DNA of 32,000 nt from Nitrosotalea sp. (GCA_050749285.1 JBOGQX010000014.1:126397-158396), one strand, 5' to 3'. Shown: positions 2,721 to 21,162, counted from the stretch's first letter. Translations and numbers: made by a program. The notes: generated by a model from the sequence alone, not told the origin.

Positions 2721-3009
2721 TAGGAACTATCTCTTTTCCATCTATTCAGGGAACTTCTAAGTTCTTCGGTTTTCCAAACCATATACAACAGTATGATTTA
2801 GGTGGATATGAGATATACGACCATAATTTCTTATCCTTCATATTATTATGAATAATATATAGATCATAGTCATAATTTCCTAAAGATAGAGACTTTACGT
2901 TATTAACCATGGTTCTGAGAAAGAAATCCAAATTAGAAAGAAAAATGGAAAACCTAAAAGTGGATATAGGGATTCAGTATATCGGGCTGGAGATGTGAAT
3001 CAAAGCAAA

Positions 3010-4403: not shown

Positions 4404-4542
4404 CCATCTTAGAACTAGATTATAGAAAATAATTTTTCCCTCTTTATTTTTAAATCAAGTTTGCAATATTCATGTTCACAAGCATTCTATCTTCATATCG
4501 ATCAGGATCATCTTTTTAGACTATGCGCATATAACAAAAATT

Positions 4543-4932
4543 ATGTATTCAGCTACCAAATCTGTTAGACTGAACAAACTTTGCAAATCAATACTAGATT
4601 GTAATGATAACATTCGTTCTGTGGAGATAATAGGAAAATCTGGAACTACACTTGAAAAAATTGGTTCCGATGAGACTATTACATTAAACAAAGAATCTCA
4701 CAATGTGCGTTTTAATGAATGCCTTCTCGACATTGCACTTGGAAAAGAATTTGAAGAATTTTATGGACCAATCCGATACCACTTCTCAAAAGACAAATCC
4801 GTGATGTTTAGTTTTCCATTTGACGAAAATTTTGTCTTTGTGGCAGCTACAAAAAATATTGGTCCAATATGGCTGGCAACAAAAATTGCTCGTATTATTA
4901 ATAAATATACGGCTGTTATCAAAAACACATAG
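4543..4932 (+). CDS. Uncharacterised 129-aa protein, paralogue of 5562..5957. Possibly a roadblock/LC7-like small alpha/beta domain, which is a weak guess.
   Basis: It aligns by eye with the 131-aa ORF on the opposite strand: LCK.I......I..V.I....G; ..EC.L......KE....FG; ....SF......F...A.TK; KIA..I.NY. Confidence 0.5.
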   Translation: MYSATKSVRLNKLCKSILDCNDNIRSVEIIGKSGTTLEKIGSDETITLNKESHNVRFNECLLDIALGKEFEEFYGPIRYHFSKDKSVMFSFPFDENFVFVAATKNIGPIWLATKIARIINKYTAVIKNT

Positions 4933-5014
4933 AAGATTTTAGTATCTCAAAATATACACATTACAGTTTACAATTTTATTGTACTTACAAAAATTTGATT
5001 TTACATTTGTTTTG

Positions 5015-5149
5015 TTATTTTGTAGGATTGACAAATTTTATGTAAAGATCACTCGTTGTCCATTTTGCTGCAGGTAGACCTAAAAAAGGCTGTTGATAGT
5101 ATTTACCTTTAAAATCATTTTCTATTGTTTGTTTCTTTTTTACTTTCAT
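5015..5149 (-). CDS. Possible unannotated 44-codon ORF coupled to the upstream RAM-domain gene
   Basis: My own translation gives MKVKKKQTIENDFKGKYYQQPFLGLPAAKWTTSDLYIKFVNPTK. Its ATG overlaps the TAA stop of 5149..5397 (TAATG). It is too short for the supplied track, and there is no homology evidence. Confidence 0.2.
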   Translation of the reverse strand: MKVKKKQTIENDFKGKYYQQPFLGLPAAKWTTSDLYIKFVNPTK

Positions 5150-5397
5150 TATACAACAGCACACATAGATTTTCTCATGCACATTAAAGTAGTAACAGAT
5201 TCAATGTAGTCAGTAAAGATTTTCCATCGTATTACTTTTCTTAAAGATTCATAATCAATTGCTTCTACTTTAGCCAAGACATCAAATTCTCCAATGGTTC
5301 TGTGTATATTTTTAACCTCATTGATTTTTTCAAGATGTTCAATGACTCGGTCTTCCAAACCCGACCTACATTTTATGATAACGTGAGCAGTAGCCAT
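5149..5397 (-). CDS. Stand-alone Lrp/AsnC-type ligand-binding (RAM) domain protein with no HTH
   Basis: 82 aa. The sequence AHVIIKCRSGLEDRVIEHLEKINEVKNIHRTIGEFDVLAKVEA has the beta-alpha-beta-beta-alpha-beta pattern of AsnC/RAM domains (G.fD....v). Confidence 0.6.
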   Translation of the reverse strand: MATAHVIIKCRSGLEDRVIEHLEKINEVKNIHRTIGEFDVLAKVEAIDYESLRKVIRWKIFTDYIESVTTLMCMRKSMCAVV

Positions 5398-5561
5398 CTC
5401 ATGAGGGTACCTATTTCACCAATCTCTTGCATGATTTGGATCTAACATTGTTTATTTGAAAGGATTAGCCTAATGATTTACTTAGGACTACAAGACTTCA
5501 TAGGGTTCATAAAATTAGTTCTAAACTTGCGACTTTGTAGTTTCAATTATTAGAGTAATCA

Positions 5562-5957
5562 TTAGTTTGCTAGTCCAACATAGTTGAAAATTACTGCAGC
5601 TATTTTTTGTTGAAGTACTGTTGGGTTATTCACTGGTTTTGTTATGGCAAGCAGAAAATAATCATCAATTTGAAATGAAAAGGCAAGAATCTTTTCTCTT
5701 TGTATTATCGAACCTTTGACTTTGCCAAATTCATCATCATATTCTTTATGCATTGACGCCTGAAGTACACATTCCATGAAGAGCATTTCCCGCTTGTGTG
5801 CTGTAAGATCTCTATTTACCCCATCATCACGCGCTATCATATCTTCAACTCGACCTTTTTGATTTAAGATAGCAACTAGATCCATGTGGTCATCAATGCA
5901 AGAAATTTGTTTACAAATTAGATCTAGGGGCAGCCTGCGCTCAAGGGCTACTGTCAT
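5562..5957 (-). CDS. Uncharacterised 131-aa protein, paralogue of 4543..4932
   Basis: See 4543..4932. The conserved blocks are shared and the lengths are nearly equal. Confidence 0.5.
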   Translation of the reverse strand: MTVALERRLPLDLICKQISCIDDHMDLVAILNQKGRVEDMIARDDGVNRDLTAHKREMLFMECVLQASMHKEYDDEFGKVKGSIIQREKILAFSFQIDDYFLLAITKPVNNPTVLQQKIAAVIFNYVGLAN

Positions 5958-6094
5958 GGTATTAGGATTGTTTTTGGCGATGAAAAGGGTTCACCGTATA
6001 GAATGCTGCTATCTACGGCAATTACATAGTTCTATGAAATATACTAAAAACCATAGTGTATGCTTAGATAATTACAATGTGGAGAGAAATTAGT

Positions 6095-6138
6095 GGTCTA
6101 CCGTGGTCACTTTGCCTTCTTCCCGGATCAGGTAGACC
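6095..6138. other. 8-bp inverted repeat (GGTCTACC ... GGTAGACC) with a 28-nt GC-enriched spacer inside a 462-nt divergent intergenic region
   Basis: Read directly: GGTCTACC at 6095-6102 and GGTAGACC at 6131-6138. The surrounding sequence is visibly richer in G/C than the flanks. Confidence 0.3.
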
Positions 6139-6419
6139 TACTCCCCGCTTAATCACTAACTGTTTTATTTGGCCTTCAGGTGACTACAAAAGTCGAAAAT
6201 ATTGGATAATTGCAAAAACTGTGGGCATTCAAAAGAAGACCATAAGGGTACAGCTACGATATGTATGAAGCAAGTTGGAAATGAATCTGATCGTCTTTGT
6301 AACTGTAACTGGTTTGATGATGGCGAAATTCATGTACTGCCGATTAGGCGAGACTAGGTTTACAGTAAAATAATTTGCCTAATGATGGTTTTTTAAACAA
6401 GTAAAGTGAGATCTCGCTG

Positions 6420-6917
6420 ATGAATGGTCTTTTAATTGGAAGGTTTCAACCATTTCACAAAGGTCATCTCTCAGCTATAAGTTTTGGATTATCAAAAGTT
6501 GAGAATCTCTGGATAGGAATTGGAAGCTCTAACAAAAGCAACGAAAAGAAGAATCCTTTCACAGCAGATGAACGAAAAGAGATGATTGTGTCTTCATTAG
6601 ATTCAGAATCATTGGAGAGAATCAAGATCTTTTATGTTCCAGACATTGGTGATCATGAAAAATGGACCTATCACGTGGATTCTATCGTACCAAAGTATGG
6701 TGCGGTCTTTTCTAATGACGATTTTACTATATCACTTTACAAAAAAAGAGGGATGGATGTAATTGAGGTTCCCCTCTTTCAAAGAGATATGATCTCAGGC
6801 ACAAGAATTCGTGAATTATTGGTAACGGATCAGGATTGGTCAAGTCTTGTTCCTGAGGGCACCAAAAAGGTCTTGTTGAAGATAAATGCAAAAGATCGGC
6901 TATCAAAAATTATGTAA
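6420..6917 (+). CDS. nadM: Nicotinamide-nucleotide adenylyltransferase, archaeal type
   Basis: 165 aa. The N-terminal GRFQPFHKGH is the (H/T)xGH nucleotidyltransferase motif, and a C-terminal ISGTRIR motif is present. Size is typical of archaeal NMNAT. Confidence 0.85.
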   Translation: MNGLLIGRFQPFHKGHLSAISFGLSKVENLWIGIGSSNKSNEKKNPFTADERKEMIVSSLDSESLERIKIFYVPDIGDHEKWTYHVDSIVPKYGAVFSNDDFTISLYKKRGMDVIEVPLFQRDMISGTRIRELLVTDQDWSSLVPEGTKKVLLKINAKDRLSKIM

Positions 6918-6974
6918 TTATAAATAATGGGTGCTTTTCGTAAAGAATGGAGAATTTATTTGGAATATTTAGTA

Positions 6975-8102
6975 ATGCTGCCCGGACCAACAAATGTTCC
7001 GGAAAGAGTAACACGCGCAATGTTTACTCATATGATAAATCACAGAAGCAAAGATTTCGTAAAATTATACACCGATGTTGTTGAAAAAACTCAAAAAGTT
7101 TTTGATACAAAGGGTGACGTGGTAGCACTAAGCGCATCAGGTACGGGGGCAGTAGAAGCATCTGTTGTAAACATGATAAAAAAAGGTGACAAGGTAATAA
7201 TTCCAGTTAACGGGGAATTTAGTTCAAGACTTGCAACTATGTTAGAGTGGCAGGGAGCAAATGTGATACGACTTGCTACACCGTTTGGTCAAAACGCAAG
7301 CTTTGAACAAGTAAAGGAAGCATTTGACAACAATAAAGATGTAAAAGCATTCTATGTAGTGTGGAATGAGACCTCGACTGGTACCATGGTAAGATACCTC
7401 GATAAGGTCTCCAGCTTGACTTCTAGAAACGATTCCTTCTTTGTAGTTGATGGCGTCTCTATTCTTGGCGGAGAAGAATTCCATATGGACAAGTGGGGTG
7501 TTGATGTATGTGTTACAGGCGCACAAAAAGCACTTGCTGCACCACCCGGCATCTCTCCAATTGCTGTTAGTCCAAAGGCGAAAAAGTACATGATGGAAAA
7601 TCCCCCACCTACTTTCTACTTTAACATGGCAAGATACTTCAAGTATTATGATGAGAACAAAGAAACTCCATTTACTCCAGCACTGCCACTGTTGTATGCA
7701 TACAGAGAAGCACTTGATATTATTCTAGAGGAAGGAATGGAAAATAGAGTAAAAAGACATAGAATTTGCTCTGAGGCACTATACAGCGGCCTTAGTGCAA
7801 TAGGTCTAACACCATTTGCAAAAGAAGATGCACGTTCTACTGTTGTCATTGCACTAAACTATCTACAAGGACTTGATGACAAAACATTTCGAGGTACACT
7901 CTCTGAAAAGTTCCGGGTTCTAGTAGCTGGTGGATTTGGAGAATTGAAAGGCAAGGTATTTCGAGTTGGTTGCATGGGAGAGGTTCACAAATATCATGTC
8001 ATGAGAACAATTTCAGCAATCCACTCAACACTTGACATGATGGGATACAAGACAAATCCTGAAGCACTCAAAGTAGCTGAAGAGAAACTCAAAGCACTTT
8101 AG
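6975..8102 (+). CDS. Class V PLP-dependent aminotransferase (serine-glyoxylate / alanine-glyoxylate / serine-pyruvate type)
   Basis: N-terminus is MLPGPTNVPERV, with a SASGTGAVEA block and the PLP-lysine context TGAQKALAAPPG. The ORF track starts at 6927. Met at 6975 gives the canonical N-terminus, so the start is uncertain. Confidence 0.8.
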   Translation: MLPGPTNVPERVTRAMFTHMINHRSKDFVKLYTDVVEKTQKVFDTKGDVVALSASGTGAVEASVVNMIKKGDKVIIPVNGEFSSRLATMLEWQGANVIRLATPFGQNASFEQVKEAFDNNKDVKAFYVVWNETSTGTMVRYLDKVSSLTSRNDSFFVVDGVSILGGEEFHMDKWGVDVCVTGAQKALAAPPGISPIAVSPKAKKYMMENPPPTFYFNMARYFKYYDENKETPFTPALPLLYAYREALDIILEEGMENRVKRHRICSEALYSGLSAIGLTPFAKEDARSTVVIALNYLQGLDDKTFRGTLSEKFRVLVAGGFGELKGKVFRVGCMGEVHKYHVMRTISAIHSTLDMMGYKTNPEALKVAEEKLKAL

Positions 8103-8195
8103 TTTCATGTTAACTTAATCTAACATCCTAAAAAATGCGTTTTAACAGGGCAAGCCATTGGGGTGGCTACAAAACCCCTACAACAATTTTTTATT

Positions 8196-9254
8196 TTACA
8201 AAAAGACTTTCTGCGAAATGCCTTTTATCCAGTCAAGGTCCTTTTCGTTTTTTACTAATGTAGATATTTTTATCACATCCCGGACATCCCTACTCTTTAT
8301 ATCATGCCAAACAAAATTAACTATTTTTTTTGAGAGATCCAGACTTATTGCTTGTTTTTGAAGGATGAATTTGGTTATTTCTAAGAATTGTTCGTATGTG
8401 TATTCCTTGAATCTAACACGGAGAAACCTTGAGAGTAATTTTTTACTAAATCCTGATACGTTATTGCATGAGCCAATTATCCAAGTCTTCATCTCTTTGG
8501 TTCTTGTCCTTCCATACTTGGTCTCTGATAGCTGGCCTGTTTGCATGAAACTAAATAGCGCAGCCAAATCCTTTTGATTCATTTCCTCCATCTCGTCTAT
8601 GATCAGATATCGAATATCATAAGAAAACAGAAAATCGGTAAGTCCTGCACGGGTTATGTTTGCTCCATCCAAAAAGAATGCCCCTGAAAGTTTTTCCATC
8701 TCCATCTGAAAAAGGGTCTTTGCACTTGCAGGAGGACCCACAAGTAAAACATGCACTGGGTTTGGCGAAGAAATTACTCGGTTTAGTAGTTCTTTTACCT
8801 CGTGATACCCTACTATGCTGGCAAACAAATCATTTGGGATGACCAATTCTCCTGGGAGTTCTTTTGCAGTCCTTAGCTCCAGGCTATGTTGAAGTATCTT
8901 TTTGACGTATTCCCTGTTTACAAGATGGTATTCCGTATGCTTGTTCGACTTGTACTTTATCGTAACTAGGCCTAATCTGAGCAATCGCTGGACGTGAAAA
9001 TAGCTATTCGAGACATCATGCCACTCCCATCCGATTGAGGCAATTGCATGACCATTGCTGCAAGTCCATTGGTCAGGAATTTCCTCATTTTCTGTTAGAT
9101 CAGAATTTTTTTGAATTTGAAATTTTTCTCCGCAATAAAAACAACTTTTTTGTTTTCCTTTTGTTTTTTCAAACTCAATTGCATTGTGTAAGACATCCAA
9201 AAGACCCTTTTCTTCTATAACTTCTGTTACCATAAAGCTACCTTTTTTTATCAC
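8196..9254 (-). CDS. AAA+ ATPase (RuvB/clamp-loader-like core) with an N-terminal zinc-ribbon and a probable winged-helix segment
   Basis: Candidate zinc site CFYCGEKF...WTCSNGH. The Walker A is atypical (LLVGPPASAKT), Walker B is YLIIDEMEEM, the sensor-1-like block is IIGSCN, and the RuvB/RFC-like block is LLSRFLRVRF. Confidence 0.6.
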   Translation of the reverse strand: MIKKGSFMVTEVIEEKGLLDVLHNAIEFEKTKGKQKSCFYCGEKFQIQKNSDLTENEEIPDQWTCSNGHAIASIGWEWHDVSNSYFHVQRLLRLGLVTIKYKSNKHTEYHLVNREYVKKILQHSLELRTAKELPGELVIPNDLFASIVGYHEVKELLNRVISSPNPVHVLLVGPPASAKTLFQMEMEKLSGAFFLDGANITRAGLTDFLFSYDIRYLIIDEMEEMNQKDLAALFSFMQTGQLSETKYGRTRTKEMKTWIIGSCNNVSGFSKKLLSRFLRVRFKEYTYEQFLEITKFILQKQAISLDLSKKIVNFVWHDIKSRDVRDVIKISTLVKNEKDLDWIKGISQKVFL

Positions 9255-9301
9255 ATTATTTTCGTCAAAAAAATATATTAATTTGAATTAAAATGAATAT
9301 T

Positions 9302-9320
9302 GACAAACAAATTGTTTGTC
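9302..9320. promoter_or_regulatory. Perfect 9-1-9 palindrome GACAAACAA-A-TTGTTTGTC, 48 nt upstream of the AAA+ gene start
   Basis: Read directly. It lies in the divergent intergenic region 9255-9520. Its AT-rich composition weakens the statistical weight. Confidence 0.3.
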
Positions 9321-9520
9321 CCCTATGTACCCATCACGTTGGTAGTTTGCTAAAATGATCATCCATTTCACCTCTATAGTAGGGATCTAGGGGATTATAC
9401 CACCATCATGTACTATTTTGGACTCATTTATTCATAAAATCATGGTTGCGGGCCTTATAGAACTCAAGCTTTTAGGTTCAGACTTGTAAGAGATTTTTAT
9501 CGGAGTTCCCGCCATATGTA

Positions 9521-9754
9521 GTGCATATGTCAGAACGTTCTCAAGAACATTCACCAAATAATTCTCATAGCCTTAGAGATCTCGTTATTCTTCTTGCAAT
9601 GCTCTCTGGTATGATAATTCTTGTTTTTAGACCATTTGGTTATAGGATGTTCCAAATTGGTTTGCAACAGCATAATGTATTTGCGGTAATTCTAGTTTTA
9701 GGAATTGTAGGAGTCATTTTAGTGATACTACAGCGACTAGGAATATTTTTGTAG
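9521..9754 (+). CDS. Small two-helix membrane protein (hypothetical)
   Basis: 77 aa with two hydrophobic stretches (LVILLAMLSGMIILVF and VFAVILVLGIVGVILVIL). The start is GTG 9521 or ATG 9527. Confidence 0.4.
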   Translation: MHMSERSQEHSPNNSHSLRDLVILLAMLSGMIILVFRPFGYRMFQIGLQQHNVFAVILVLGIVGVILVILQRLGIFL

Positions 9755-9890
9755 ACATGAACAGATGATATTGTTTTACCCTTTGTATCTGAACTAGTTT
9801 GTACTAGAATTCAAAATAAAAAATAGAGAAGGAGTTTGCAGCTACTCCAGTGAGCTTACTACACATTTCCTGTAAGTTTTTCTTCACAAA

Positions 9891-9945
9891 ACCGTCGGTG
9901 CTCGGACTGACTGTCAGTTCAAAAACTGCAAGGGCTTGCTCAAGT
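9891..9945 (+). repeat. Possible degenerate third copy of the terminal block of the 11.1-kb and 13.7-kb elements
   Basis: A CTGAC core at 9907 is followed 20 nt later by TGCAAGGGCT (9927-9936). Copy 1 has the same pair with 19-nt spacing. Overall similarity is only about 60% by eye. Confidence 0.3.
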
Positions 9946-10946
9946 TAACCAGAATTTTTTGCCCAGCCTCTCTCTAATAATTTCGTGGCAGTAGCTGGCT
10001 TTACACAAGCAGGTGTACCATCCTCCGCCTTGATAACTAGTTCAAGACCTTGTTGACATTTTAGATCCTTTGCTGGTATTCCAGATTTGAATTGTTTGAG
10101 AGGATCTTGATAAATTGTTCCAATTGTACCAACTGTACTAGATTGAGACTGGTTAGCAAATGACTTTTCTGTAAAAGGGCATATGACAAACGAATAATTT
10201 GCCTGTAAATCAAGTAATACTTTTTTTTGATCGTCAGAAAACGATGTAATGAGATTTCCATTTGCGTCATATTTGCAAAGTTTTGATACATCTACGTTAC
10301 ATTCTGGACATTGAAAATGGGTAAGCATCAAACTGTAGTATTCTTCATCGGTATGTAACAAATATTCGCTAACATCGGATGAAAGTTGGTTTGCTTGTGA
10401 TAATATGGTTGGAGCTCCAACTAGTGAACAAGAATTAGAACCATACAAAAGATGCCCATTCAGGGAATATCCACAGATTGCGGGTAAATTATCTGCAGAA
10501 GCATAACTGGAACTGTTAGATGTGATCAAGGCCGTTGCCCTAAAGATCAGCTGCTGCGTATCCAAATATGGAGGCGGGAGTGTTCTGTCAATATACTCTG
10601 CTGTCACAGTATCACCTTCCGATACATGAAGTCTATTTCCTGATGATGGAAAATTGGTTGAAAAATAAACATTTCCAAGAAAGATTCCTGAATTAGGTGC
10701 TGTTTCCACCATTTCAAGTCTTATCCCACTAAGATCCGAATCAGACCATACGCTTGTCTGAAAAGTTGTAATTGTCATCGGATTAAGACTAAGATCCTTG
10801 TCTGTGATTTCTACCGTTCCAGAAGAATTTGGTGAATAAGTTGTACGATCCCAGCTTGTCTCATTTTGAGCATTCGCTAAGGGTAACAGACTTGCGCTAA
10901 TTACTATGCAAAAAAGGAATACAATTAGTCGGATGCCCTTCAACAT
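9945..10946 (-). CDS. Secreted protein of unknown function
   Basis: 333 aa. There is an N-terminal signal peptide (LIVFLFCIVISASLLPLANAQ) and many paired Cys. The C-terminal module is CQQGLELVIKAEDGTPACVKPATATKLLERGWA. Confidence 0.6.
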   Translation of the reverse strand: MLKGIRLIVFLFCIVISASLLPLANAQNETSWDRTTYSPNSSGTVEITDKDLSLNPMTITTFQTSVWSDSDLSGIRLEMVETAPNSGIFLGNVYFSTNFPSSGNRLHVSEGDTVTAEYIDRTLPPPYLDTQQLIFRATALITSNSSSYASADNLPAICGYSLNGHLLYGSNSCSLVGAPTILSQANQLSSDVSEYLLHTDEEYYSLMLTHFQCPECNVDVSKLCKYDANGNLITSFSDDQKKVLLDLQANYSFVICPFTEKSFANQSQSSTVGTIGTIYQDPLKQFKSGIPAKDLKCQQGLELVIKAEDGTPACVKPATATKLLERGWAKNSG

Positions 10947-11097
10947 AGATGATATTCACATTGTTCTAATTAAATTTGGAATTGTTGAATAAATCAGGTA
11001 AAAACCGTATTGTACAACAGATATCAAACTTTCACTGATGAGCCTACAGATTCCAATCCTGTAAGACCCAGCTACTATTTTGGAATAATTGAGCCCG

Positions 11098-11356
11098 TTA
11101 ATGGGAATTAATCAGTATTCCATTACATGAGAGGGGAGTTGGTAGGATACCTAGCACGATGTGTGAAAAATGCATAATACAGACACGTTTTGGCAATCTA
11201 CTGACGGTAAAAGTTATCATAACAGACAGAATTCTTGGTACATTCTGACGATAAAATTTGGTTTTCTAACTGTGTGTAAACTCATCCTGACTGATTCTTA
11301 GACCGAGTCTGACGGTAAATTGGTACAATGCAAGGGCTCAAAGTACGTAGAGCCCT
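11098..11356 (+). repeat. Non-coding composite element, copy 1: conserved leader, six 21-22-bp periodic units (core CTGACGGTAAA), and a terminal hairpin
   Basis: Leader blocks are TTAATGGGAATTA and GGATACCTAGCACG. Cores start at 11201, 11223, 11245, 11266, 11287 and 11309, giving spacings of 22, 22, 21, 21 and 22. The terminal hairpin is AGGGCTC-aaagtacgta-GAGCCCT at 11333-11356. The element is homologous to 13646-13986. The strand shown is only the orientation shared by both copies. Confidence 0.85.
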
Positions 11357-11459
11357 AGTACCAGCAAAAATTCGGATGACGTTGAATTATTCATTCTTCT
11401 CATTACAAAACTTTCCGTGTTTGGCACACGAAAAATCCAAGATTAGAGAACGTGTAGAG

Positions 11460-11534
11460 GCAAGGGTCAAGACTGGATAGCAACCTTGCAAGAACCAGAC
11501 TTCCAATCCTCGGACTGCAGTCCACCAACCTGGT
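11460..11534. other. GC-enriched stretch with two adjacent hairpins; candidate structured RNA of unknown strand
   Basis: Hairpin 1 is GCAAGG (11460-65) paired with CCTTGC (11484-89) around an 18-nt loop. Hairpin 2 is ACCAG (11494-98) paired with CTGGT (11530-34), enclosing the perfect 12-nt palindrome GGACTGCAGTCC (11512-23). I could not fold it as a tRNA. Confidence 0.3.
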
Positions 11535-11707
11535 GTAAGCGCAATGGTGTTTCTTCTCCTTGATTGCTACCCAAATAATATACGTTCCCATAAAATAAAA
11601 AGGTAATCCACAGAATAATTTTTCGGCATATGCCACAAGTCTAGTATGCTACCAGATTTGCGGCAAAGTTTTATACCACTAAAATCTGAAAACAAAAATG
11701 CAAACCA

Positions 11708-12283
11708 TTAGTCAGATTGTGCACTGGTTATTTTTTGATCCTTGTGCCTCTCAGTCAAAATCATGGTACTGTATATGCCAATAATTGCACCATAAATGAC
11801 ATGTAATACAATAGCTCCGCCCATTATTAGGGAGAGATTTGCCTTCATAACGTCTAACATACGAATCTCATCATTTGTACCAAAGTTAGCATTACTTGTG
11901 ATGGAATTGATATCTGGAACTATGATATACAATGTAATTGGCATGAAAAATATTGCATACACCTCCAGGCCGGTAACACCCCCTCCAAGAATTCCCTTCC
12001 ATACGGTATTTAGATGAAGAATTGGATGTAATGTAGAACAGATGCAAAATACTGCACCGATGGTCATGGCAGTGAGCATATGGGCCAAGACTCCAAAGAT
12101 GGTTGCAGAGATACCGTGCAGCCCAACTGCAATTCCTATCATTGTGTACAAATCCCAAGGATCTAACTTTATGAACTTATCAAAGGCGACAAATACCAAA
12201 AGAATCATTATTCCGCCCAGAAAACCGGCTGTTACTCCAACTTTACCTTTTTCGTAAATTTCATTACGGCTTATTCTTCCCAC
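11708..12283 (-). CDS. Integral membrane protein of unknown function with ~5 predicted helices
   Basis: 191 aa with repeated hydrophobic segments (VTAGFLGGIMILLVFVAF, MIGIAVGLHGISATIFGVLAHML, GAVFCICS, VYAIFFMPITLYIIV, IMGGAIVLHVIYGAIIGIY). Confidence 0.6.
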   Translation of the reverse strand: MGRISRNEIYEKGKVGVTAGFLGGIMILLVFVAFDKFIKLDPWDLYTMIGIAVGLHGISATIFGVLAHMLTAMTIGAVFCICSTLHPILHLNTVWKGILGGGVTGLEVYAIFFMPITLYIIVPDINSITSNANFGTNDEIRMLDVMKANLSLIMGGAIVLHVIYGAIIGIYSTMILTERHKDQKITSAQSD

Positions 12284-12434
12284 ACATATTTATCGTGGGC
12301 AAAATATTTACGCAGTTCGGTATCCTACTTGTCCATAACTCCTAGGTTCTAATGGATTGAAAACAGGTCATCTTAAAATGCATAGAAAATCAAGATACTA
12401 AAACTACAAAAGGAAACAAAACACCACAGAATAT

Positions 12435-13019
12435 GTGGCCAGAGCAAACTCAAACGCCATAGTATACGCTATTGCCAAAATCTTCAGAGAATACATTGTT
12501 GATGCCAACAGTTTAACTTCTGAATATTCTTACAAATCCGCATCATCAAAGCTTGAAAGGCTCAACTTTATCCTCAAGGATGTGTCAATTTTTGCAGGCT
12601 TGATAAGCGGAGAGTATTTCTCGAACAAGGCAAACTACTGGACCGCAGGTCTCTTCATCTCAGCTGCAATAAACAAGGTAATAAAAGAGGATGACACAGT
12701 GACATTGGATTTTGCTGGCCTAGGCTGCCCTTCTGATTGCATCGGCTACAGATTCAAACAGGGCAAAATCGTATTGCAAAGCAATGCAGGAGATTACATT
12801 GGAGAAGGCATGTCCGGAGGCGAGATCACAATCCAAGGCAATGCAGGGTATTACGCAGGATATAACATGTCAGGAGGACACATCACAATCCAAGGTAATG
12901 CGGCGGGTCACGTTGGCACGTACATGTCAGGAGGTGTGATCCAAATAGAAGGCCAAATTGGATCCATAGCCCAGTCTTGCAGGGGCAGAATCTATCACAG
13001 AGGAACATTACTACAGTAA
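12435..13019 (+). CDS. GXGXG-motif beta-helix protein (FwdC / glutamate-synthase C-terminal-domain-like) with an unrelated ~110-aa N-terminal part
   Basis: Three tandem coils are present: GDYIGEGMSGGEITIQGNAG, YYAGYNMSGGHITIQGNAAG and HVGTYMSGGVIQIEGQIG. It has a GTG start. No other glutamate synthase or formylmethanofuran dehydrogenase subunits are in the window. Confidence 0.7.
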   Translation: MARANSNAIVYAIAKIFREYIVDANSLTSEYSYKSASSKLERLNFILKDVSIFAGLISGEYFSNKANYWTAGLFISAAINKVIKEDDTVTLDFAGLGCPSDCIGYRFKQGKIVLQSNAGDYIGEGMSGGEITIQGNAGYYAGYNMSGGHITIQGNAAGHVGTYMSGGVIQIEGQIGSIAQSCRGRIYHRGTLLQ

Positions 13020-13247
13020 TTTGTACAACTAGATTCGGGTCTCAACAGATTCGAACATGAATTAATCTTGAATAACGATTCTTATTATTTCGAAATCATA
13101 TAGGAAATCTAATGGATCTCAAAATAAGATATACGGACTTGTATGTTGTTGTAATTACAAACACGTAGAAATCTAAATTCTACATGCATATCATTGATAC
13201 TATAATTCTATATTGGATATGCTTATCATTTGTAAATTAAACGAAAA

Positions 13248-13430
13248 GTGATGGAGTTGATGGAATTACAAATGCCAGATGAGTCTTGTAGAGGTTGTGG
13301 AGGTTTGTTGATCAAATATTCTGTATGTGCTGGATGTCGAGGAACAATCCAAAAAATATGCAATAACTGTTCGTCAAAGACCGATCAGCAAATCCATGAT
13401 CATTGCTTTAAAATGGAATTAATTCACTAG
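13248..13430 (+). CDS. Small Cys-rich zinc-ribbon protein (hypothetical)
   Basis: 60 aa with CRGC..(13)..CAGC..(8)..CNNC...HDHC spacing, which would fit two zinc knuckles. Confidence 0.4.
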   Translation: MMELMELQMPDESCRGCGGLLIKYSVCAGCRGTIQKICNNCSSKTDQQIHDHCFKMELIH

Positions 13431-13532
13431 AATGAGAATTTAATTACCACAATCATATTCTACGAGGTAATTTATGAAATGACAATAAAAACCATAGACA
13501 ACTCTTAGATAAGATAAAAGATATCATAATCA

Positions 13533-13593
13533 TGCGGCCTACAATTTTTAATTGTGGCGACGATCCTACTTCACTCAGGGCTAGTAGGCCGCA
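13533..13593. other. GC-rich perfect 10-bp inverted repeat (TGCGGCCTAC ... GTAGGCCGCA) with a 41-nt spacer and a competing inner pairing
   Basis: Read directly. CCTACT (13565-70) can alternatively pair with AGTAGG (13583-88), which overlaps the 3' arm. At 60 nt it is too short for a tRNA and has no T-arm. Confidence 0.4.
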
Positions 13594-13645
13594 CCTCATT
13601 CTCAATGGATTTGGATCTTACCAGGTCAGATACAATATTGTCTCA

Positions 13646-13986
13646 TTAATGGGAATTAAGGAGTAATCTAGACACGGTGGGGGAGTGCGTGGGATACCTA
13701 GCACGGTACATGAAAAAGCTTGTGACAGGAACACATTATCTCTTTACTGACTGTAAACCTACGCTGATTTCACGCCACAATCACGGTTCCCTGACAGAGA
13801 AATTCAATTCTTCTGACGGTAAATTTAGATCATCGTCCGGTGAATAACTATCTTCTGACAGTGAAACATCACATCCTGACGCTGAATAATTTTCTTCTGA
13901 CGGTAAATCAACTCGCTCAGACTGATTCTTGAACCGAGTCTGACCGTAAATTAGTACAATGCCACGGGCTCAAAGTACGTAGAGCC
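13646..13986 (+). repeat. Non-coding composite element, copy 2: same leader, ~9 periodic units, and the same terminal block and hairpin
   Basis: The same leader blocks (TTAATGGGAATTA, GGATACCTAGCACG) are present. CTGAC cores start at 13747, 13791, 13813, 13855, 13876, 13897 and 13940, with degenerate units at 13764, 13834 and 13922. The last ~64 nt are about 90% identical to copy 1. The element ends 54 nt before ATG 14040. Confidence 0.85.
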
Positions 13987-14039
13987 TGCATCGAAAGTGG
14001 GTCCGATTACCATATAATAAACAATAATGAAATGAAATC

Positions 14040-15257
14040 ATGTCTCATGATGAGGCTATGCAAAATGCAATCCAGACAAGATTAGCAACGTATGATTACA
14101 AATCTGCTAACTTCAGGCTTGCACTAGTTAAAGAGAACGACTTCTGGAAAGTTGCAATTGCCCGCATAATTCTAGATGTTTTAGAACCAAAAGGGCAAGA
14201 CATGCATCTTAAACAGGATGATTTTGTCTTGGTGGATTTCTCATTGTCAATTGATGAATTCAAACAATTTCTCGAATATCTAAAACATGTCTACGTAGGA
14301 AACATAACCATAAAGGGCAATACTATCGATTTTACAGATGATCTACTCTTCAAACTTGGTGATTACAAGTTATGTTTTGTAGGAAACTTTCCTAGCCCTG
14401 AACCATATTTTTATGGAAGAGAAGTAGCAAGAACATATCATGGGATAGACAAACCAGTTTTCCTTGCAGAATATGCGATTTCTGGCCTTGCCTCCTCCAA
14501 ATTACTATACCACATTCAACCCACTAGCAGTGAAGTTCCATTTAGAAATGTCATTGAAGCATTAAACTACTACTGGCACACAGATTATCAACAATACAGT
14601 ATGCCAATGAATTCAAATATCTACTTCCCCAACTACGACGCCAGTATAGAAAATTTCACGTGCGAAAAGAAACATGCGGTGTTACAAATTGATATTGATA
14701 CCAAAAGGGTTAAGATATCTGATTTGAGTGTGGGATTAATTTTAGAAGCCAAAACTGGCAAGTATAGAAAAAAACATTTTCCAAAAGATCACAAATTAGA
14801 ATTAAATCTTGATTTTGAACCAGATTATGGTACCATCTATTTGTATAAGAATGAAAAAAAGATAGACGAGCTAAACTATCAATCTAGCGCGCATAAAGCA
14901 TTCTTTGAAAAAATAACAGGTACTGTAGAAGTAGGTATCCCCACGGGCGAGGAAGGAGGTGTCGTGGAGGAAGTCTCATCCACAATAGAAGAAGAAAGAA
15001 TTTTTTCACATGAATTTGTAAAAGAACTGCCTGAACATATCCAATTATTGGTTTATGAAGCTGATGAAGCATACCGTCATAAACTGTATAGAGCAACTGC
15101 TATCTTATTGCGTACTACTCTTGAAGAAGGACTAACTATAGCAATTAAACACGCTGGTAGAGAGCCTGATAAACCAAGGATACAGGTTTGTTGGAGTACT
15201 GCCAAACGGAAAAGTGATAGTGCAAAAGTGATTAACCTACGAAAACGCGAACTTTAG
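14040..15257 (+). CDS. Orphan 405-aa protein whose C-terminal helix pair resembles the start of a DUF4145-type domain
   Basis: It is a long ORF with a TATA-like ATATAATAAA about 35 nt upstream. I recognised no motifs in the N-terminal ~330 aa. EADEAYRHKLYRATAILLRTTLEEGL resembles the DUF4145 opening helices, but the ORF ends soon afterwards. Confidence 0.55.
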   Translation: MSHDEAMQNAIQTRLATYDYKSANFRLALVKENDFWKVAIARIILDVLEPKGQDMHLKQDDFVLVDFSLSIDEFKQFLEYLKHVYVGNITIKGNTIDFTDDLLFKLGDYKLCFVGNFPSPEPYFYGREVARTYHGIDKPVFLAEYAISGLASSKLLYHIQPTSSEVPFRNVIEALNYYWHTDYQQYSMPMNSNIYFPNYDASIENFTCEKKHAVLQIDIDTKRVKISDLSVGLILEAKTGKYRKKHFPKDHKLELNLDFEPDYGTIYLYKNEKKIDELNYQSSAHKAFFEKITGTVEVGIPTGEEGGVVEEVSSTIEEERIFSHEFVKELPEHIQLLVYEADEAYRHKLYRATAILLRTTLEEGLTIAIKHAGREPDKPRIQVCWSTAKRKSDSAKVINLRKREL

Positions 15258-15283
15258 CTTAATATAAGGAATAAAAAGGATCG

Positions 15284-16039
15284 ATGACGTTGGTCTTCCA
15301 AAAAGGTACATTAATTCTGGTGGATTACACAGCAAAAGTAAAAGACACAAACGAAGTCTTTGAAACTACTAGAGAAGCTGATGCAAAAACAAACTCCATC
15401 TTTGATGCAAATGTAAAGTATCAACCAAGACTGATATCAGTGGGAGAGTCTTGGGTGCTCAAAGGATTAGATGATGCACTTTTAAATGCAAATACAAGTG
15501 ATAAACTTTCAGTTGAGGTACCACCCGAGAAGGGATTTGGAGCAAGAGATACAAGCAAAGTTAGAATGATTCCTCTGCGAAAATTAGGTGATGATGCAGA
15601 GAAAGTTTCTGTTGGCGATACAATCGAGCTTGATGACCGAACTGGAATTATCAGATTCATTGGTTCTGGACGAGTCCAAGTTGATTTCAATCACAGATTT
15701 GCAGGAAGAACAATCCTTTATGATGTAAATGTCATCAAATCGCTTGACACCGACCAAGATAAAATCATGGGTCTTCTCAAGAGAAGATTCCCACTAGATG
15801 AATCAAAACTGAAATTCGAGATAAAAGAAACACAACTTGATGTTACTATCCCAGAAGAGGCCATTATGATGGAAGGACTTCAGGTAGTAAAGCGGGCAAT
15901 AGCAAATGAGATCTTAAAATTCGTGACAAAACTCGACAAAATCAACTTTATAGAGACCTATAATAGGGCAAAGCCACAAGAAAAACCAGCAGAGCAAAAA
16001 GCAGCTGAGGCAAAACCTGTACAGCCAAAAGCTGCTTAA
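15284..16039 (+). CDS. FKBP-type peptidyl-prolyl cis-trans isomerase, long archaeal form with insert-in-flap and a C-terminal helical domain
   Basis: LVDYTAKVKDTNEVFETT, then SVGESWVLKGLDDAL, then VDFNHRFAGRTILYDVNV, which is the typical archaeal FKBP/SlyD-like order. It ends in an acidic/Lys-Ala-rich tail. Confidence 0.8.
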   Translation: MTLVFQKGTLILVDYTAKVKDTNEVFETTREADAKTNSIFDANVKYQPRLISVGESWVLKGLDDALLNANTSDKLSVEVPPEKGFGARDTSKVRMIPLRKLGDDAEKVSVGDTIELDDRTGIIRFIGSGRVQVDFNHRFAGRTILYDVNVIKSLDTDQDKIMGLLKRRFPLDESKLKFEIKETQLDVTIPEEAIMMEGLQVVKRAIANEILKFVTKLDKINFIETYNRAKPQEKPAEQKAAEAKPVQPKAA

Positions 16040-16040
16040 A

Positions 16041-17081
16041 CTATAAGATGCCAGTACTTTTTGCCAGAGCAATCGCTTTTTCTTCAGTCATTTTTACTTG
16101 GCTTAAAATTGTATATCTTTCTGGCCTCAAAGATTGAGCCATAGTTAATGCCTTTGCAAGAATTCTTGGTTCAAGACCAATCTCTTTTGCAGTTGTGGGC
16201 GCACCAACATTTTTCAGCATCCTGATTATCTTTTTCCAGTCTTGACCCTGAAGTTTTGCAATCAAAATTGCTCCTATGCCACATTTTTCACCATGTAAAC
16301 CAACTCCTGGCTCAAGATAGTCAACTGCATGAGAGAATAGGTGCTCTGCACCAGAACATGGTCTGCTACTTCCAGCAATACATGCTGCAACACCCGAGCT
16401 TATCAGAGCTTCTACTATCATTCTAACGTCAGGTTTCTTCTTAAAATTCTTTGAATTATCAATTACAATCTTGGCGCTCATAGAAGCCAAGTTTGCAGCA
16501 TAAGTTCCAAAGTATTCTCCCACCTTATCTCTTGCAAGCTCCCAATCTCTTACAGCTGTTACTTTTGCCATTAAATCACCGCATCCACTGGCAAGGAGTC
16601 TTCTTGGAGCTTTTTTCAAAATTTCAATGTCTACAAAAACCCCAAGTGGAGCTGTAGCTATAATCGAGTATGGTTTATCACCACGCAAGGAAACAAATGG
16701 ACTTGCAATTCCATCATGTGATGCAGAAGTTGGAATGCTGACAAATGGTATCTTCAAAGTAAAGGCAATCATTTTTGCAATATCTACAGAACGGCCGCCA
16801 CCAATCCCAATTATCAAATCACTCTTGTCTTTTTTTATTTCCTCGAGTATTCTTTTTGCAGACTCGATATCGTTACTTGTACTAAGATGCCAGACATTTT
16901 TTATCTTAGAGTCAATTAGTGACTTGACTACCTTGTTGTAAGTAATCTTTCTTACCTGTTCTCCTGAAACAAGAGAAACCTTTCTTGGTTTGCAAAGGCC
17001 TGTCAGGAAACTCCCTATATTACTAATGTTTTTCTCACCAACGACTATCTGTCTTGGGAGCTCCATAACATGAGAAGGCAT
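16041..17081 (-). CDS. egsA: sn-Glycerol-1-phosphate dehydrogenase (archaeal lipid backbone synthesis)
   Basis: 346 aa of the iron-ADH/DHQS-like fold. It has GIGGGRSVDIAK, SIPTSASHDGIASPF and HLFSH...GLHGEKCG metal-ligand blocks, and the N-terminus ELPRQIVVGEKNI is typical of EgsA. Confidence 0.85.
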   Translation of the reverse strand: MPSHVMELPRQIVVGEKNISNIGSFLTGLCKPRKVSLVSGEQVRKITYNKVVKSLIDSKIKNVWHLSTSNDIESAKRILEEIKKDKSDLIIGIGGGRSVDIAKMIAFTLKIPFVSIPTSASHDGIASPFVSLRGDKPYSIIATAPLGVFVDIEILKKAPRRLLASGCGDLMAKVTAVRDWELARDKVGEYFGTYAANLASMSAKIVIDNSKNFKKKPDVRMIVEALISSGVAACIAGSSRPCSGAEHLFSHAVDYLEPGVGLHGEKCGIGAILIAKLQGQDWKKIIRMLKNVGAPTTAKEIGLEPRILAKALTMAQSLRPERYTILSQVKMTEEKAIALAKSTGIL

Positions 17082-17187
17082 GAATTTTTCTTCAAACCTA
17101 GTTATTTATCGATATCCTATGACAATACAAAGTTATTTAAACCGGTGAAATCCTAATCGAAGGTATCTCTAGTTAGGAGAATGTTAT

Positions 17188-17820
17188 TTGTCAGACTATA
17201 TTGAACAACACACACTACATGGAACAACTACCGTCGGAATCGCATGTGCCGATGGGGTAGTCTTGTGCGCGGACATGAGAGCAAGCGCTGGCTATTTCAT
17301 AGCAAATAACAATACAATGAAAATTCAAAAGATAGATAATCATGCGGGTATGACGATGGCTGGTGGTGTTGCAGATGCACAGAACATCACTGACATTCTA
17401 CGATATCACTCCAACATTCATAGAATAGAAAAACAAGAGTATCTACCAATCAAATCAATTGCAAGACTTACCTCGCTTATCTTCTTCCAAAATAGATACT
17501 ATGGATTTATTGCAGATATTCTTGTAGGAGGATATGACAATAAAGGTCCATCTTTGTACAACATTGATCCTTTTGGATCTCTTGACAAGAAAAAGTTTGT
17601 AACCACAGGAAGCGGTTCACCCGTTGCCTATGGCCTGTTGGAAAGTGAATATCGTGACAATCTTACAGTCGATGAAGCTAAAGTAGTCGCGTTAAGAGCT
17701 GTCAAAGGTGCAATAACAAGAAACATTGGAACAGGAGACGGAATAAATGTCGCAATAATCGACAAACAGGGATTCCGACTCTTAACAAAAGAACAGAAGA
17801 AAGCTATCATTACGCTATAG
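17188..17820 (+). CDS. psmB: Proteasome subunit beta
   Basis: A short propeptide is followed by the active-site HG/TTTVGIA, with GSGS near the C-terminus. Only a TTG start at 17188 preserves the propeptide. Confidence 0.9.
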   Translation: MSDYIEQHTLHGTTTVGIACADGVVLCADMRASAGYFIANNNTMKIQKIDNHAGMTMAGGVADAQNITDILRYHSNIHRIEKQEYLPIKSIARLTSLIFFQNRYYGFIADILVGGYDNKGPSLYNIDPFGSLDKKKFVTTGSGSPVAYGLLESEYRDNLTVDEAKVVALRAVKGAITRNIGTGDGINVAIIDKQGFRLLTKEQKKAIITL

Positions 17821-17827
17821 TGATTTA

Positions 17828-19759
17828 ATGCAAAGAAATAAGCAACAACGTGAAGTGTCTCCACTACCCAATATCATGGGAACCATACTTCAAAGTATAC
17901 CAAAAGAGGCTGAGGTAACTAAGATAGAATATGAAGGTCCGAGAATTGCGATATACACAAAAAACCCTCGCTTTCTTATGGACCACAACGATGTAATCTC
18001 AAACATGGTTAACGTCATAAAAAAGAGAATTGTTGTCAGAACTGAGGAATCCATTAGGAAAAACGAGGAAGAAGCAAGACAGATACTGACTCAAATGCTT
18101 CCAAAAGATACTGATTTGCGTGGCACTTTCTTTGATACTGCAACTGGTGAGCTGACAGTAGAAGTGAAGCGACCTTGGCTGCTAAATAACAATGAAGCAT
18201 TCAACATTGCAGATCTTGTTGCAAAGACAGGTTGGCGTGTTCGAATAAGAAAATCAACTACCATTCAATCCCAGACTATTCAAACTATAAACTACAACCT
18301 CAAGATATCATCTGTTGAAAGAAGCAAGCATTTGCGACAAGTCGGAGAACAGATCTTCAGACCAAAACTTTCTGAAGACGCTGAAGTCTCTCTGATTACA
18401 CTTGGCGGATTCAGCCAAGTTGGTAGGTCTTGCATGTTACTTACAACACATGAAAGCAAAGTTCTAGTAGATTGTGGCATAAATCCTGGTACCAGAAGTC
18501 CATTGGAGGCATATCCGCGACTTGACTGGGCAAACATCACTCTTGATGAACTAGATGCGGTAGTTATCAGTCATGCTCACCTGGATCATACCGGGTTCCT
18601 ACCAGTCCTTTTCAAATATGGTTACAAGGGACCTGTTTATTGCACTGAACCTACCTTACCCATGATGAATTTAATCCAGCTTGATGCAATCAAGGTAGCA
18701 GCTGCTCAAGGTAAGATTCCAATATACTCTGAAAGAGATGTGAAACAGGTCATGAAACAGACTATTTCTCTTCCATATGGCACTGTTACAGATATTTCGC
18801 CTGACATTAAACTCGTTTTCTCTAATGCCGGCCATATCTTGGGTTCAGCATCATGTCACTTTCATATTGGAAATGGAAATCACAACTTTGTCTATACCGG
18901 AGATCTAAAGTATGGTAAATCTATGCTCTTTGAGAGCGCATCATGGAACTTTCCAAGAGTTGAGACACTTCTAATTGAGAGCACTTATGGTGCAAAAGAG
19001 GATATACAGCCTACAAGGGAAGAGGTAGAATCTGCATTTATCAAATCAGTAAATGAAACCCTACGAAATGGTGGCAAGGTCTTGATCCCAATTCCTGCCG
19101 TTGGTCGTGCGCAAGAACTGATGATGGTAATCAACCAATACATGAAAATAGGTCATCTCATGGAAGCTCCAGTCTTTACAGAAGGAATGATTTCAGAAGC
19201 GACTGCAATTCATGAATCTTATCCTGAATATCTTGCACGTGAGCTCAGACAAAAAATTCTGGAAACAGAAGAAAATCCATTTGACTCTGAATACTTTACA
19301 AACATAGAACACTCTGACGCACGAGAAGAGCCATTACGAGAGGGGCCTTGTATCATCATGGCAACTTCTGGTATGCTTGAAGGCGGTCCAGTGCTTGAGT
19401 ACTTTAAGAACATTGCACCAATACAGAAGAACAAAATTTTGTTCGTTTCATATCAGGTAAATGGAACAATGGGAAGAAGAGTGCTTGACGGCTCAAGGCA
19501 GGTGTCAGTTGTAGGAAAAGAAGGAAAGATAGAAGTAATAAACATAAATTGTTCTACTGAAAAACTTGATGGATTTAGCGGTCATAGTGACTATAACCAA
19601 CTAATGTCATATGTACACAAATTAAGACCGAAACTTCGCAGGGTGATCGTAAATCACGGCGAAAGAAGAAAGTGTGAGAATCTTGCCAGCTCAATTCATA
19701 GGATGTTTAGAATTGCAACAACCTGCCCACAAGTTCAAGAAGGCCTAAGATTACTTTAG
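17828..19759 (+). CDS. aCPSF1-type beta-CASP ribonuclease (N-terminal KH domains, metallo-beta-lactamase, beta-CASP)
   Basis: 643 aa. The HAHLDHTG motif, the later GDLKY and ESTYG blocks, and the C-terminal FSGHSD and NHGE motifs are all present. The N-terminal ~180 aa is KH-like. Confidence 0.9.
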   Translation: MQRNKQQREVSPLPNIMGTILQSIPKEAEVTKIEYEGPRIAIYTKNPRFLMDHNDVISNMVNVIKKRIVVRTEESIRKNEEEARQILTQMLPKDTDLRGTFFDTATGELTVEVKRPWLLNNNEAFNIADLVAKTGWRVRIRKSTTIQSQTIQTINYNLKISSVERSKHLRQVGEQIFRPKLSEDAEVSLITLGGFSQVGRSCMLLTTHESKVLVDCGINPGTRSPLEAYPRLDWANITLDELDAVVISHAHLDHTGFLPVLFKYGYKGPVYCTEPTLPMMNLIQLDAIKVAAAQGKIPIYSERDVKQVMKQTISLPYGTVTDISPDIKLVFSNAGHILGSASCHFHIGNGNHNFVYTGDLKYGKSMLFESASWNFPRVETLLIESTYGAKEDIQPTREEVESAFIKSVNETLRNGGKVLIPIPAVGRAQELMMVINQYMKIGHLMEAPVFTEGMISEATAIHESYPEYLARELRQKILETEENPFDSEYFTNIEHSDAREEPLREGPCIIMATSGMLEGGPVLEYFKNIAPIQKNKILFVSYQVNGTMGRRVLDGSRQVSVVGKEGKIEVININCSTEKLDGFSGHSDYNQLMSYVHKLRPKLRRVIVNHGERRKCENLASSIHRMFRIATTCPQVQEGLRLL

Positions 19760-20050
19760 ATCGTACTCTGCTCTCCAGATCTTTACCCCTGGAGGAGTCA
19801 CAATAATTCTTTCTTCTCCTAATCTTGCAATGTCGGCATCATTATTTTTTGCAATATTGTAGATTTCTTCCACAGCTTTTCTCAACTCCTCTACATTTTT
19901 TTGTGCAAGAGGAGTAACGCGAAGAACTAGAATCATTCCTTTTTTGATGTCTTCCTTAACAGTATGGACATCGCTGTAATCCCTTATCGTAATGGCCTTC
20001 AGATATGTCGGTGCCTTCTGCGTTTGCATCCTATTTGGTATGCCACTCAC
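19751..20050 (-). CDS. sepF: SepF-like (DUF552) small protein
   Basis: 99 aa. IRDYSDVHTVKEDIKKGMILVLRVTPLAQKNVEELRKAVEEIYNIAKNNDADIARLGEERIIVTPPGVKI matches the archaeal SepF core pattern. Its 3' end overlaps the aCPSF1 3' end by 9 nt (convergent). Confidence 0.55.
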   Translation of the reverse strand: MSGIPNRMQTQKAPTYLKAITIRDYSDVHTVKEDIKKGMILVLRVTPLAQKNVEELRKAVEEIYNIAKNNDADIARLGEERIIVTPPGVKIWRAEYDLK

Positions 20051-20102
20051 TCCCTCAAAAAGCCTTTCTAGTCAATTGCAATTCACAGTCTAGCTTGTCT
20101 GA

Positions 20103-21107: not shown

Positions 21108-21162
21108 AAGACAAAAACTCTATCTCCAATATCTAAACCTTCCAGCAAACATAAATGCAGAC

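Follow-up and report, generated by a model that had tools for sequence, protein, structure and literature searches.

Two homologous non-coding elements lie in the chromosomal DNA of Nitrosotalea sp., an acidophilic ammonia-oxidising archaeon of acid soil, and each contains an array of short conserved cores that recur every 21-22 nucleotides (nt). We read them as two paralogous genes for a plus-strand non-coding RNA showing evenly spaced protein-binding cores, a reading that we hold tentatively, as slightly short of probable. The elements themselves are real and unannotated: their anatomy, strand bias, constraint on cores over spacers and hairpin conservation are seen in the sequence, and it is transcription, protein binding and any guide function that we infer. 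They were found in a stretch of 32,000 nt of a metagenome-assembled genome (MAG; GCA_050749285.1, JBOGQX010000014.1:126397-158396), hereafter called the window, of which positions 9939-25257 are 99.98-100% identical to contigs of the assembly GCA_975255945.1 and of the Logan run SRR27067722.

The elements span positions ~11047-11356 (copy 1) and ~13607-13988 (copy 2), both on the plus strand and in direct orientation, and these are the only two copies that nhmmer and BLAST found in the window and ~14 kb of extra flank. As an earlier note on this DNA had proposed, they are direct-orientation homologues with mosaic conservation: the alignment of copy 1 with copy 2 has a mean column identity of 76%, with exact blocks amid diverged stretches, and the homology continues ~50 nt upstream of the first block, to ~11047 and ~13607, beyond the extent given in that note. 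The blocks that are exact in both copies are TTAATGGGAATTAA (hereafter the box), GGGGAGT, GGATACCTAGCACG and TGAAAAA. The box, whose arms TTAAT and ATTAA are inverted repeats and whose end is a TATA-like AATTAA, had been taken for a 13-mer; it is shared exactly, but its length is 14 nt (11098-11111 and 13646-13659). The second 14-mer, GGATACCTAGCACG, is exact at 11145 and 13692, as described. Strong conservation of the 3' region also stands, although the terminal ~64 nt at ~90% identity become 70 aligned columns at 88.6%. The last two units of the arrays are common to both copies at ~90% identity, and no one-to-one pairing can be made among the interior units. The parts of the elements are listed here; L001 is a sister contig of GCA_975255945.1.

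Copy 1 upstream module, 11047 to 11097, plus strand: TATA-like TACTATTTTG and a 10-nt insertion; weak homology to the modules of copy 2 and L001 in a three-way alignment.
Copy 1 box, 11098 to 11111, plus strand: TTAATGGGAATTAA, a 14-mer that is exact in both copies and at L001 4179.
Copy 1 leader, 11133 to 11170, plus strand: GGGGAGT, the mini-hairpin UAGG-AUA-CCUA within GGATACCTAGCACG, and TGAAAAA; 82% identity over 38 nt.
Copy 1 array, 11201 to 11330, plus strand: six units of 21-22 nt, starting at 11201, 11223, 11245, 11266, 11287 and 11309.
Copy 1 terminal hairpin, 11333 to 11356, plus strand: AGGGCTC-AAAGTACGTA-GAGCCCT.
Copy 2 upstream module, 13607 to 13645, plus strand: GGATTTGGATCTTACCAGGTCAGATACAATATTGTCTCA, a homologue of L001 4130-4178, which precedes an Endonuclease V gene.
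Copy 2 box, 13646 to 13659, plus strand: TTAATGGGAATTAA, exact 14-mer.
Copy 2 leader, 13679 to 13717, plus strand: G-run with GGGGAGT, UGGG-AUA-CCUA within GGATACCTAGCACG, and TGAAAAA.
Copy 2 array, 13747 to 13961, plus strand: ten units of 21-22 nt.
Copy 2 terminal hairpin, 13965 to 13988, plus strand: CGGGCTC-AAAGTACGTA-GAGCCTG; all seven of the seven pairs kept.

Conserved cores on a 21-22-nt lattice

The pentamer CTGAC occurs exactly 11 times in the 602 nt of the elements, against 0.31 expected (Poisson P = 4e-14), while TCTGACGGTAAA with at most two mismatches gives 11 matches against 2.5 expected, eight of them within the elements, all on the plus strand. By chance, all exact CTGAC sites would fall on a 21-22 lattice with a probability of 0.003 in copy 1 and 1.5e-5 in copy 2; the mean period is 21.6 nt and 21.4 nt, respectively. 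When the claimed periodicity was set against shuffled sequence, for which the 99th percentile of the largest autocorrelation z is 3.7, copy 2 exceeded this value both at a shift of 21 (z = 5.2-5.5) and at a shift of 42 (z = 4.1-4.3); the autocorrelation of copy 1 is weak and not significant (z = 1.7). The six cores reported for copy 1 are in phase, but only four are exact CTGAC, since 11223 reads CAGAC and 11266 reads CTAAC. The count of six units for this copy is right; that of copy 2, previously put at about nine, is ten.

All 16 units can be parsed as a core of ~11 nt, C-UG-N4-URA-A, followed by ~10-11 variable nt. Along the unit, the information content is high for positions 1-5 and 7, moderate for 8-11 and falls almost to zero for 12-21, in agreement with the division into an ~11-nt conserved core and ~10 variable nt that had been read from the sequence. 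Every unit and every conserved block has the same orientation in both copies. Each variable segment is preceded (5') by URA(A) and followed (3') by CUGA, with 11-12 nt between the two. Moreover, the cores of copy 2 come in two flavours: a B flavour (TCTTCTGACGGTAAAT-like) at 13813, 13855, 13897 and 13940, and an A flavour (CTGACGnTGAATAA or CWGACWGATTCTT) at 13791, 13834, 13876 and 13918. From 13791 to 13940 the two alternate, which gives a double unit of 42-43 nt; the alternation is broken in copy 1 and at the less regular 5' end of copy 2. The statement that the arrays have no alternation of repeat and spacer is thus mistaken, since a conserved core alternates with a variable segment throughout and copy 2 adds a super-period of 42-43 nt.

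The arrays are non-coding, as had been proposed. No open reading frame (ORF) crosses either of them, and the mixed spacing of 21 and 22 nt breaks any reading frame. Chains of phased CTGAC were found nowhere else in the window, in the ~14 kb of extra flank or in ~100 kb of other Nitrosotalea loci. Tandem Repeats Finder did not detect the arrays; indeed, standard tools (Tandem Repeats Finder, Rfam, CRISPR finders) miss these elements, and more of them might come to light if short cores were simply tested for a lattice.

Could such arrays be the decaying, functionless remains of a tandem repeat, or of a locally duplicated mobile element? The elements are apparently restricted to one lineage, some units are degenerate, and the region is poorly syntenic and lies beside a strain or assembly junction, all of which would fit. 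However, positions 1-11 of the unit are constrained and positions 12-21 are free, and such position-specific constraint is not expected from the neutral decay of a tandem duplication. Phase has been kept despite gain and loss of units, the paralogues are conserved as a mosaic with exact 14-mers amid diverged sequence, and the hairpin has been kept by a compensatory change. Neither terminal inverted repeats nor a target-site duplication, a transposase or an integrase was found at the elements. We regard decay as rather improbable. A miniature inverted-repeat transposable element or an integrated element was also considered and rejected, as terminal inverted repeats, target-site duplication and integrase are absent.

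Hairpins, upstream module and possible strand of transcription

Each element closes with a hairpin of 7 bp that begins 13-14 nt past the last core. Its presence agrees with the earlier note, in which copy 2 had a single arm change; the change is in fact larger, as from copy 1 to copy 2 the outermost pair goes from A-U to C-G (compensatory) and the next from G-C to G.U. A second, 4-bp hairpin is found in the leader, within GGATACCTAGC, where pairs 54-57 with 61-64 are kept and one A-U pair becomes G.U. Both G.U changes would be A.C mismatches if the elements were read on the minus strand. A predicted helix between leader and tail, with one compensatory pair, was not relied on, as only two sequences are available and part of it may precede the transcription start.

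The L001 contig carries at 4130-4192 a module of ~50 nt that ends in TTAATGGGAATTAA and lies 65 nt upstream of the Endonuclease V gene, in the same orientation. An exact 29-mer, TACAATATTGTCTCATTAATGGGAATTAA, is common to this module and to the sequence upstream of copy 2, and the similarity of L001 to the elements ends exactly after the box. Because module and box recur in the same orientation before a protein-coding gene, they may together form a portable promoter or 5' regulatory module. If so, it follows that the elements would be transcribed from the plus strand. The spacing is also suggestive: the conserved G-run follows the AATTAA of the box at 21-23 nt, and AT-rich TATA-like boxes (TTTAATTA, ATATAATAAA) precede the start codons of neighbouring genes by about as much. 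A plus-strand RNA is thus favoured by the shared promoter-like module, by the distance from TATA-like box to G-run and by hairpin changes that are compatible with G.U pairing on one strand only.

Transcription starting at the conserved G-run would yield RNAs of roughly 225 and 310 nt. Each gene would then consist of a promoter-like module, a conserved leader of ~70 nt, an unstructured array and a 3' domain closed by the 7-bp hairpin. Folding of the whole elements is no better than that of shuffled sequence (z = -0.1 and +1.2); with no excess folding energy in the arrays, the cores would therefore be single-stranded and accessible. Most likely, the transcript would serve as a multi-site platform on which the same trans-encoded protein binds each exposed core, the even spacing being dictated by how large that protein or its oligomer is. 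A guide-array-like ribonucleoprotein (RNP), of the TIGR (tandem interspaced guide RNA) or box C/D kind, with the variable segments as payload, would be preferable to a pure protein sponge. Provided that they are transcribed and bound by protein, the elements would rank as the first phased arrays of short repeats and short spacers described in ammonia-oxidising archaea, and as the first such arrays that do not adjoin their effector gene. An RNA of this kind would also bear on the kinship of box C/D guides, IS110 bridge RNAs and TIGR arrays.

No known RNA family matches the elements: Rfam gave no match over the whole window at the gathering threshold, and at a permissive E <= 10 nothing relevant, with two chance matches (E of 3 and 6) elsewhere in 10950-14050. 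A tRNA scan found none.

RNA platform, guide array or DNA-binding array

Several observations weigh against a plus-strand RNA platform. Some units have degenerate cores (CAGAC, CTAAC, CGTCC, TTCAC), and only three variable segments have both URA and UG as flanks. The spacers have no convincing target in the window: 22 matches were found against 12.3 +/- 4.1 in shuffles, and the self-target matches are driven by low-complexity spacers. No oligo-T tract follows the terminal hairpin, the shuffle control for the hairpin (259/500) is uninformative, and the covariation carries no statistical power because there are two sequences only. A Nop- or Tas-like ORF was not found in the window and its flanks (~46 kb), where a profile of 24 Tas/Nop sequences from Data S1 and, separately, TaTasR, compared with ORFs in all six frames of the window, L001, L035 and L037, gave best E values of 0.08-0.6, which are noise; likewise, Pfam annotation of the neighbouring genes gave no Nop domain. 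No homologue was found elsewhere, in genomes, metagenomes, IMG/VR, phages or plasmids. Finally, a period of 21.4-21.6 nt corresponds to two turns of DNA and suits a DNA-level explanation equally well.

The earlier note had put forward phased DNA-binding sites and a multi-site RNA, and both are retained here as candidate functions. At the level of DNA, the cores would be direct-repeat protein sites placed on one helix face every two turns, as in the iterons of plasmids or phages, ParR-type centromeres or arrays for cooperative regulators, with the palindromic box (TTAAT-N4-ATTAA) and GGGCTC-N10-GAGCCC as extra dimer sites. This deserves serious weight, even if we consider it unlikely. Like iterons and ParR-type centromeres, the arrays are direct repeats in one orientation and in helical phase (21.4-21.6 bp on average, or about 2 x 10.5-10.7 bp, with the lattice probabilities given above), their copy number varies, and the two conserved blocks that flank them are each an inverted repeat. 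The compensatory change from A-T to C-G in the terminal hairpin would keep the dyad symmetry of DNA as well as it keeps an RNA pair, but the changes of the G.U (RNA) type break it. Unlike iterons, there are two arrays 2.5 kb apart in a chromosome, and half of each unit is conserved (11/21 bp) in a core without dyad symmetry. The upstream module also stands before a protein gene. Furthermore, no replication initiator, ParA/ParR partition or integrase gene was found among the neighbours annotated with Pfam, NCBIfam and PADLOC, which are housekeeping, secreted, membrane and GXGXG proteins. If the elements do act as DNA, an archaeal chromosome would here carry an iteron- or centromere-like array that has no known binder.

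Iterons that look similar, TGTCTATTCTGACAGTAAAAC, were seen in IMG/VR phage contigs (L020-L025), where four of them lie 21-26 bp apart (e.g. L024 6260-6360) inside a replication-protein gene and are followed by an A-rich stretch, an arrangement that looks like a lambdoid-type origin. Their core is CTGACAGTAAAA; that they share CTGAC(A/G)GTAAA is a coincidence of the search pattern, and they are analogues and not homologues of the units described here. A replication origin with origin recognition box (ORB) elements was considered for the window and rejected, there being no orc1/cdc6 gene. The AAA+ ORF at 8196-9254 is weakly MCM/RFC-like and lies on a different contig from the elements in another assembly of the population.

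The plus-strand RNA can be compared with three kinds of known RNA. Sponge RNAs such as CsrB and RsmZ share with it the many copies of a short motif, a copy number that varies between paralogues and a terminal hairpin. Their GGA motifs, however, sit in hairpin loops at irregular spacing, whereas here an 11-nt core is unstructured and strictly phased. To our knowledge, archaea have no CsrA-like partner. A CRISPR array was rejected, the core measuring 11 nt and the spacers 10-11 nt against near-identical repeats of ~23-50 nt with spacers of similar size, and no cas genes being found in the annotation.

TIGR arrays consist of two alternating repeats (edge and loop) of 8-12 nt, with spacers of 9 nt and exceptionally up to 12, and end in a truncated repeat and a terminator hairpin; they are present in archaea (Faure et al. 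2025, PMC12045711). The repeat is UG, 4 nt and CCA, with box D (UG/YG) first and box C (CCA/CNA) last, and the array lies beside a gene for a Nop-domain Tas protein (TasA, TasR or TasH) (PMC12045711; bioRxiv 10.64898/2026.09.09.750476). Intervals of 14 nt (box C of 3, spacer of 9, box D of 2) follow each other 4 nt apart, so that the half-unit is 18 nt and the unit 36 nt, and TIGRFinder asks for at least four perfect intervals (Xu et al. 2026, bioRxiv 10.64898/2026.09.09.750476). In the TaTIGR array (Table S1), TGCGAGCCA-N9-TGAAACCCA-N9... repeats strictly every 18 nt, followed by a hairpin and T6.

Several of these traits recur in our elements: very short repeats alternate with variable segments in small non-coding arrays, a hairpin, though with no T-run, follows the last repeat, the repeats start with UG and a 4-nt gap, and part of copy 2, unlike copy 1, alternates A and B flavours in double units of 42-43 nt. 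The spacer length falls near the top of the published range. TIGR arrays are also missed by ordinary tandem-repeat finders, as the present arrays were. True TIGR-Tas arrays, that is, precursors of dual-repeat tigRNAs whose Tas effector is encoded elsewhere or lost, are nevertheless very improbable. The period is 21-22 nt and 42-44 nt instead of a strict 18 nt, many units are degenerate where published arrays are strictly regular, and the 3' box is URA and not CCA/CNA: UG is found in 11 of the 16 units and UAA or UGA as the 3' box in 10, CNA in none. Perfect intervals of box C, spacer and box D number three (13834 to 13897, in copy 2), one fewer than the TIGRFinder minimum, and copy 1 has none. 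No T-run follows the hairpin, and the context is chromosomal and housekeeping instead of a mobile element. TaTasR has 15 relatives in 5.8 billion proteins, none of them labelled Nitrosotalea. Membership of the TIGR class thus fails on the period, the URA box, the three intact spacers and the lack of a Tas/Nop ORF in ~46 kb.

In archaeal box C/D guides, a C' box ending in UGA is followed after 10-12 nt by a CUGA D box. These small RNAs guide 2'-O-methylation in RNPs with Nop5, fibrillarin and L7Ae, their guides being complementary to rRNA or tRNA, and resemble our elements in several respects. The D-box consensus CUGA is found 11 times, the variable segment between URA and CUGA measures 11-12 nt, as guides sit between C/C' and D'/D, and CUGA-N3-UGA is reminiscent of a D'-loop-C' module. 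By analogy, the flanks of the variable segments appear closer to archaeal box C/D guides than to TIGR. The likeness has its limits: of a C box no more than URA(A) is present, and the tandem G.A pairs that a K-turn or K-loop needs could not form in most modules. The canonical RUGAUGA C box is absent, the pattern TGATGA-N9-14-CTGA-N2-12-TGANGA having no match in the window, and Rfam gave no match. In addition, the units are arranged head to tail, whereas box C/D guides are single RNAs of ~55 nt.

The elements could also be chromosomal box C/D-type guide arrays that are independent of Tas, with dual units of 42-43 nt, CUGA/URA boxes, guides of 11-12 nt and a trans-encoded Nop-family protein, a reading that we regard as rather improbable. 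The cell's own Nop5-fibrillarin-L7Ae machinery could then possibly provide the servicing proteins, and such arrays would be a missing link between single archaeal C/D small RNAs and the TIGR arrays of mobile elements. The earlier opinion that no element of this form has been described is too strong in view of the layout parallels with TIGR arrays and box C/D RNAs, and holds in so far as the elements could be assigned to neither class.

Relatives and genomic setting

The elements were sought beyond the window at several scales. One exact leader pattern gave chance matches only in 185,579 GTDB genomes, and a second one gave a single chance coding match in JGI metagenomes; five patterns searched in IMG/VR returned phage iterons, coding heptad repeats or nothing, and blastn against phage and plasmid records gave no match. 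As exact-pattern scans are insensitive, these results do not prove the absence of relatives. The GXGXG gene that lies between the two copies is conserved across Nitrosotalea (55-82% identity) and has different neighbours in every genome examined; none of six related Nitrosotalea loci reached by synteny through this gene contains the element.

The gene order is a 333-aa secreted WING-49 protein (minus strand), copy 1, a 191-aa membrane protein (minus), the 194-aa GXGXG protein (plus), a 60-aa zinc-ribbon ORF (plus), copy 2 and a 405-aa gene (plus). The wider neighbours are ordinary: Ppx, thymidylate kinases, an aminotransferase, FKBP26, G1P dehydrogenase, a proteasome subunit, aCPSF1, SepF, ThiI and CoA biosynthesis genes.

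This order bears on whether the elements could be cis-acting 5' leaders or regulatory regions of adjacent genes, copy 2 for instance serving the 405-aa gene of the DUF4145 family. Copy 2 does end 51 nt before the ATG at 14040, with no oligo-T terminator between. However, the 405-aa gene has a TATA-like box of its own at -29, a homologue of it in L012 has no such element upstream, and copy 1, which faces the 3' ends of convergent genes, is followed by no gene on its strand. A cis-acting role is very unlikely.

The 405-aa product of 14040-15257 is identical to the NCBI protein 'MAG: hypothetical protein ACREA3_03170 [Nitrosotalea sp.]'. It belongs to a rare family whose other members have 436-449 aa with a C-terminal DUF4145 domain and adjoin GmrSD, NERD or AAA genes, in what looks like a defence island. 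Similarity is lost after residue ~375 and the KWFGDKAxHE motif is absent, so the copy is C-terminally truncated and may be a decaying gene. It has no relatives in GTDB genomes and no sequence match in PDB. An array-associated effector role was rejected for it: the protein is of the DUF4145 family and truncated, and a homologue's locus contains no array.

Directly after the stop of the 333-aa gene, positions 9939-10020 form a junction of two variants or contigs. Positions 1-10020 of the window are the end of contig CDHSYA010000017, and from 9939 on the sequence is that of contig CDHSYA010000074, which upstream of the junction is wholly different and carries SlaA-like, EndoV and hypothetical genes. 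The junction reflects either strain heterogeneity or an assembly join. Just before it, 690 nt (9255-9944) are nearly free of genes, the sole ORF being a hydrophobic one of 77 aa (9521-9754), and 30 nt at 9907-9936 resemble the last unit and hairpin arm of copy 1 (73% similarity), probably by chance.

Three further observations concern the surroundings of the GXGXG gene and of copy 2. The gene contains three internal repeats of 57 nt (19 aa) at 12762-12932. The intergenic sequence upstream of copy 2 (13533-13593) has a 10-bp stem, GCGGCCUACA...UGUAGGCCGC, around ~40 nt, with a folding z of -2.5 and no Rfam or tRNA match. Another Nitrosotalea MAG has, downstream of its GXGXG neighbourhood (L016 11415-11580, minus strand), a candidate intron-containing tRNA gene, judged by eye.

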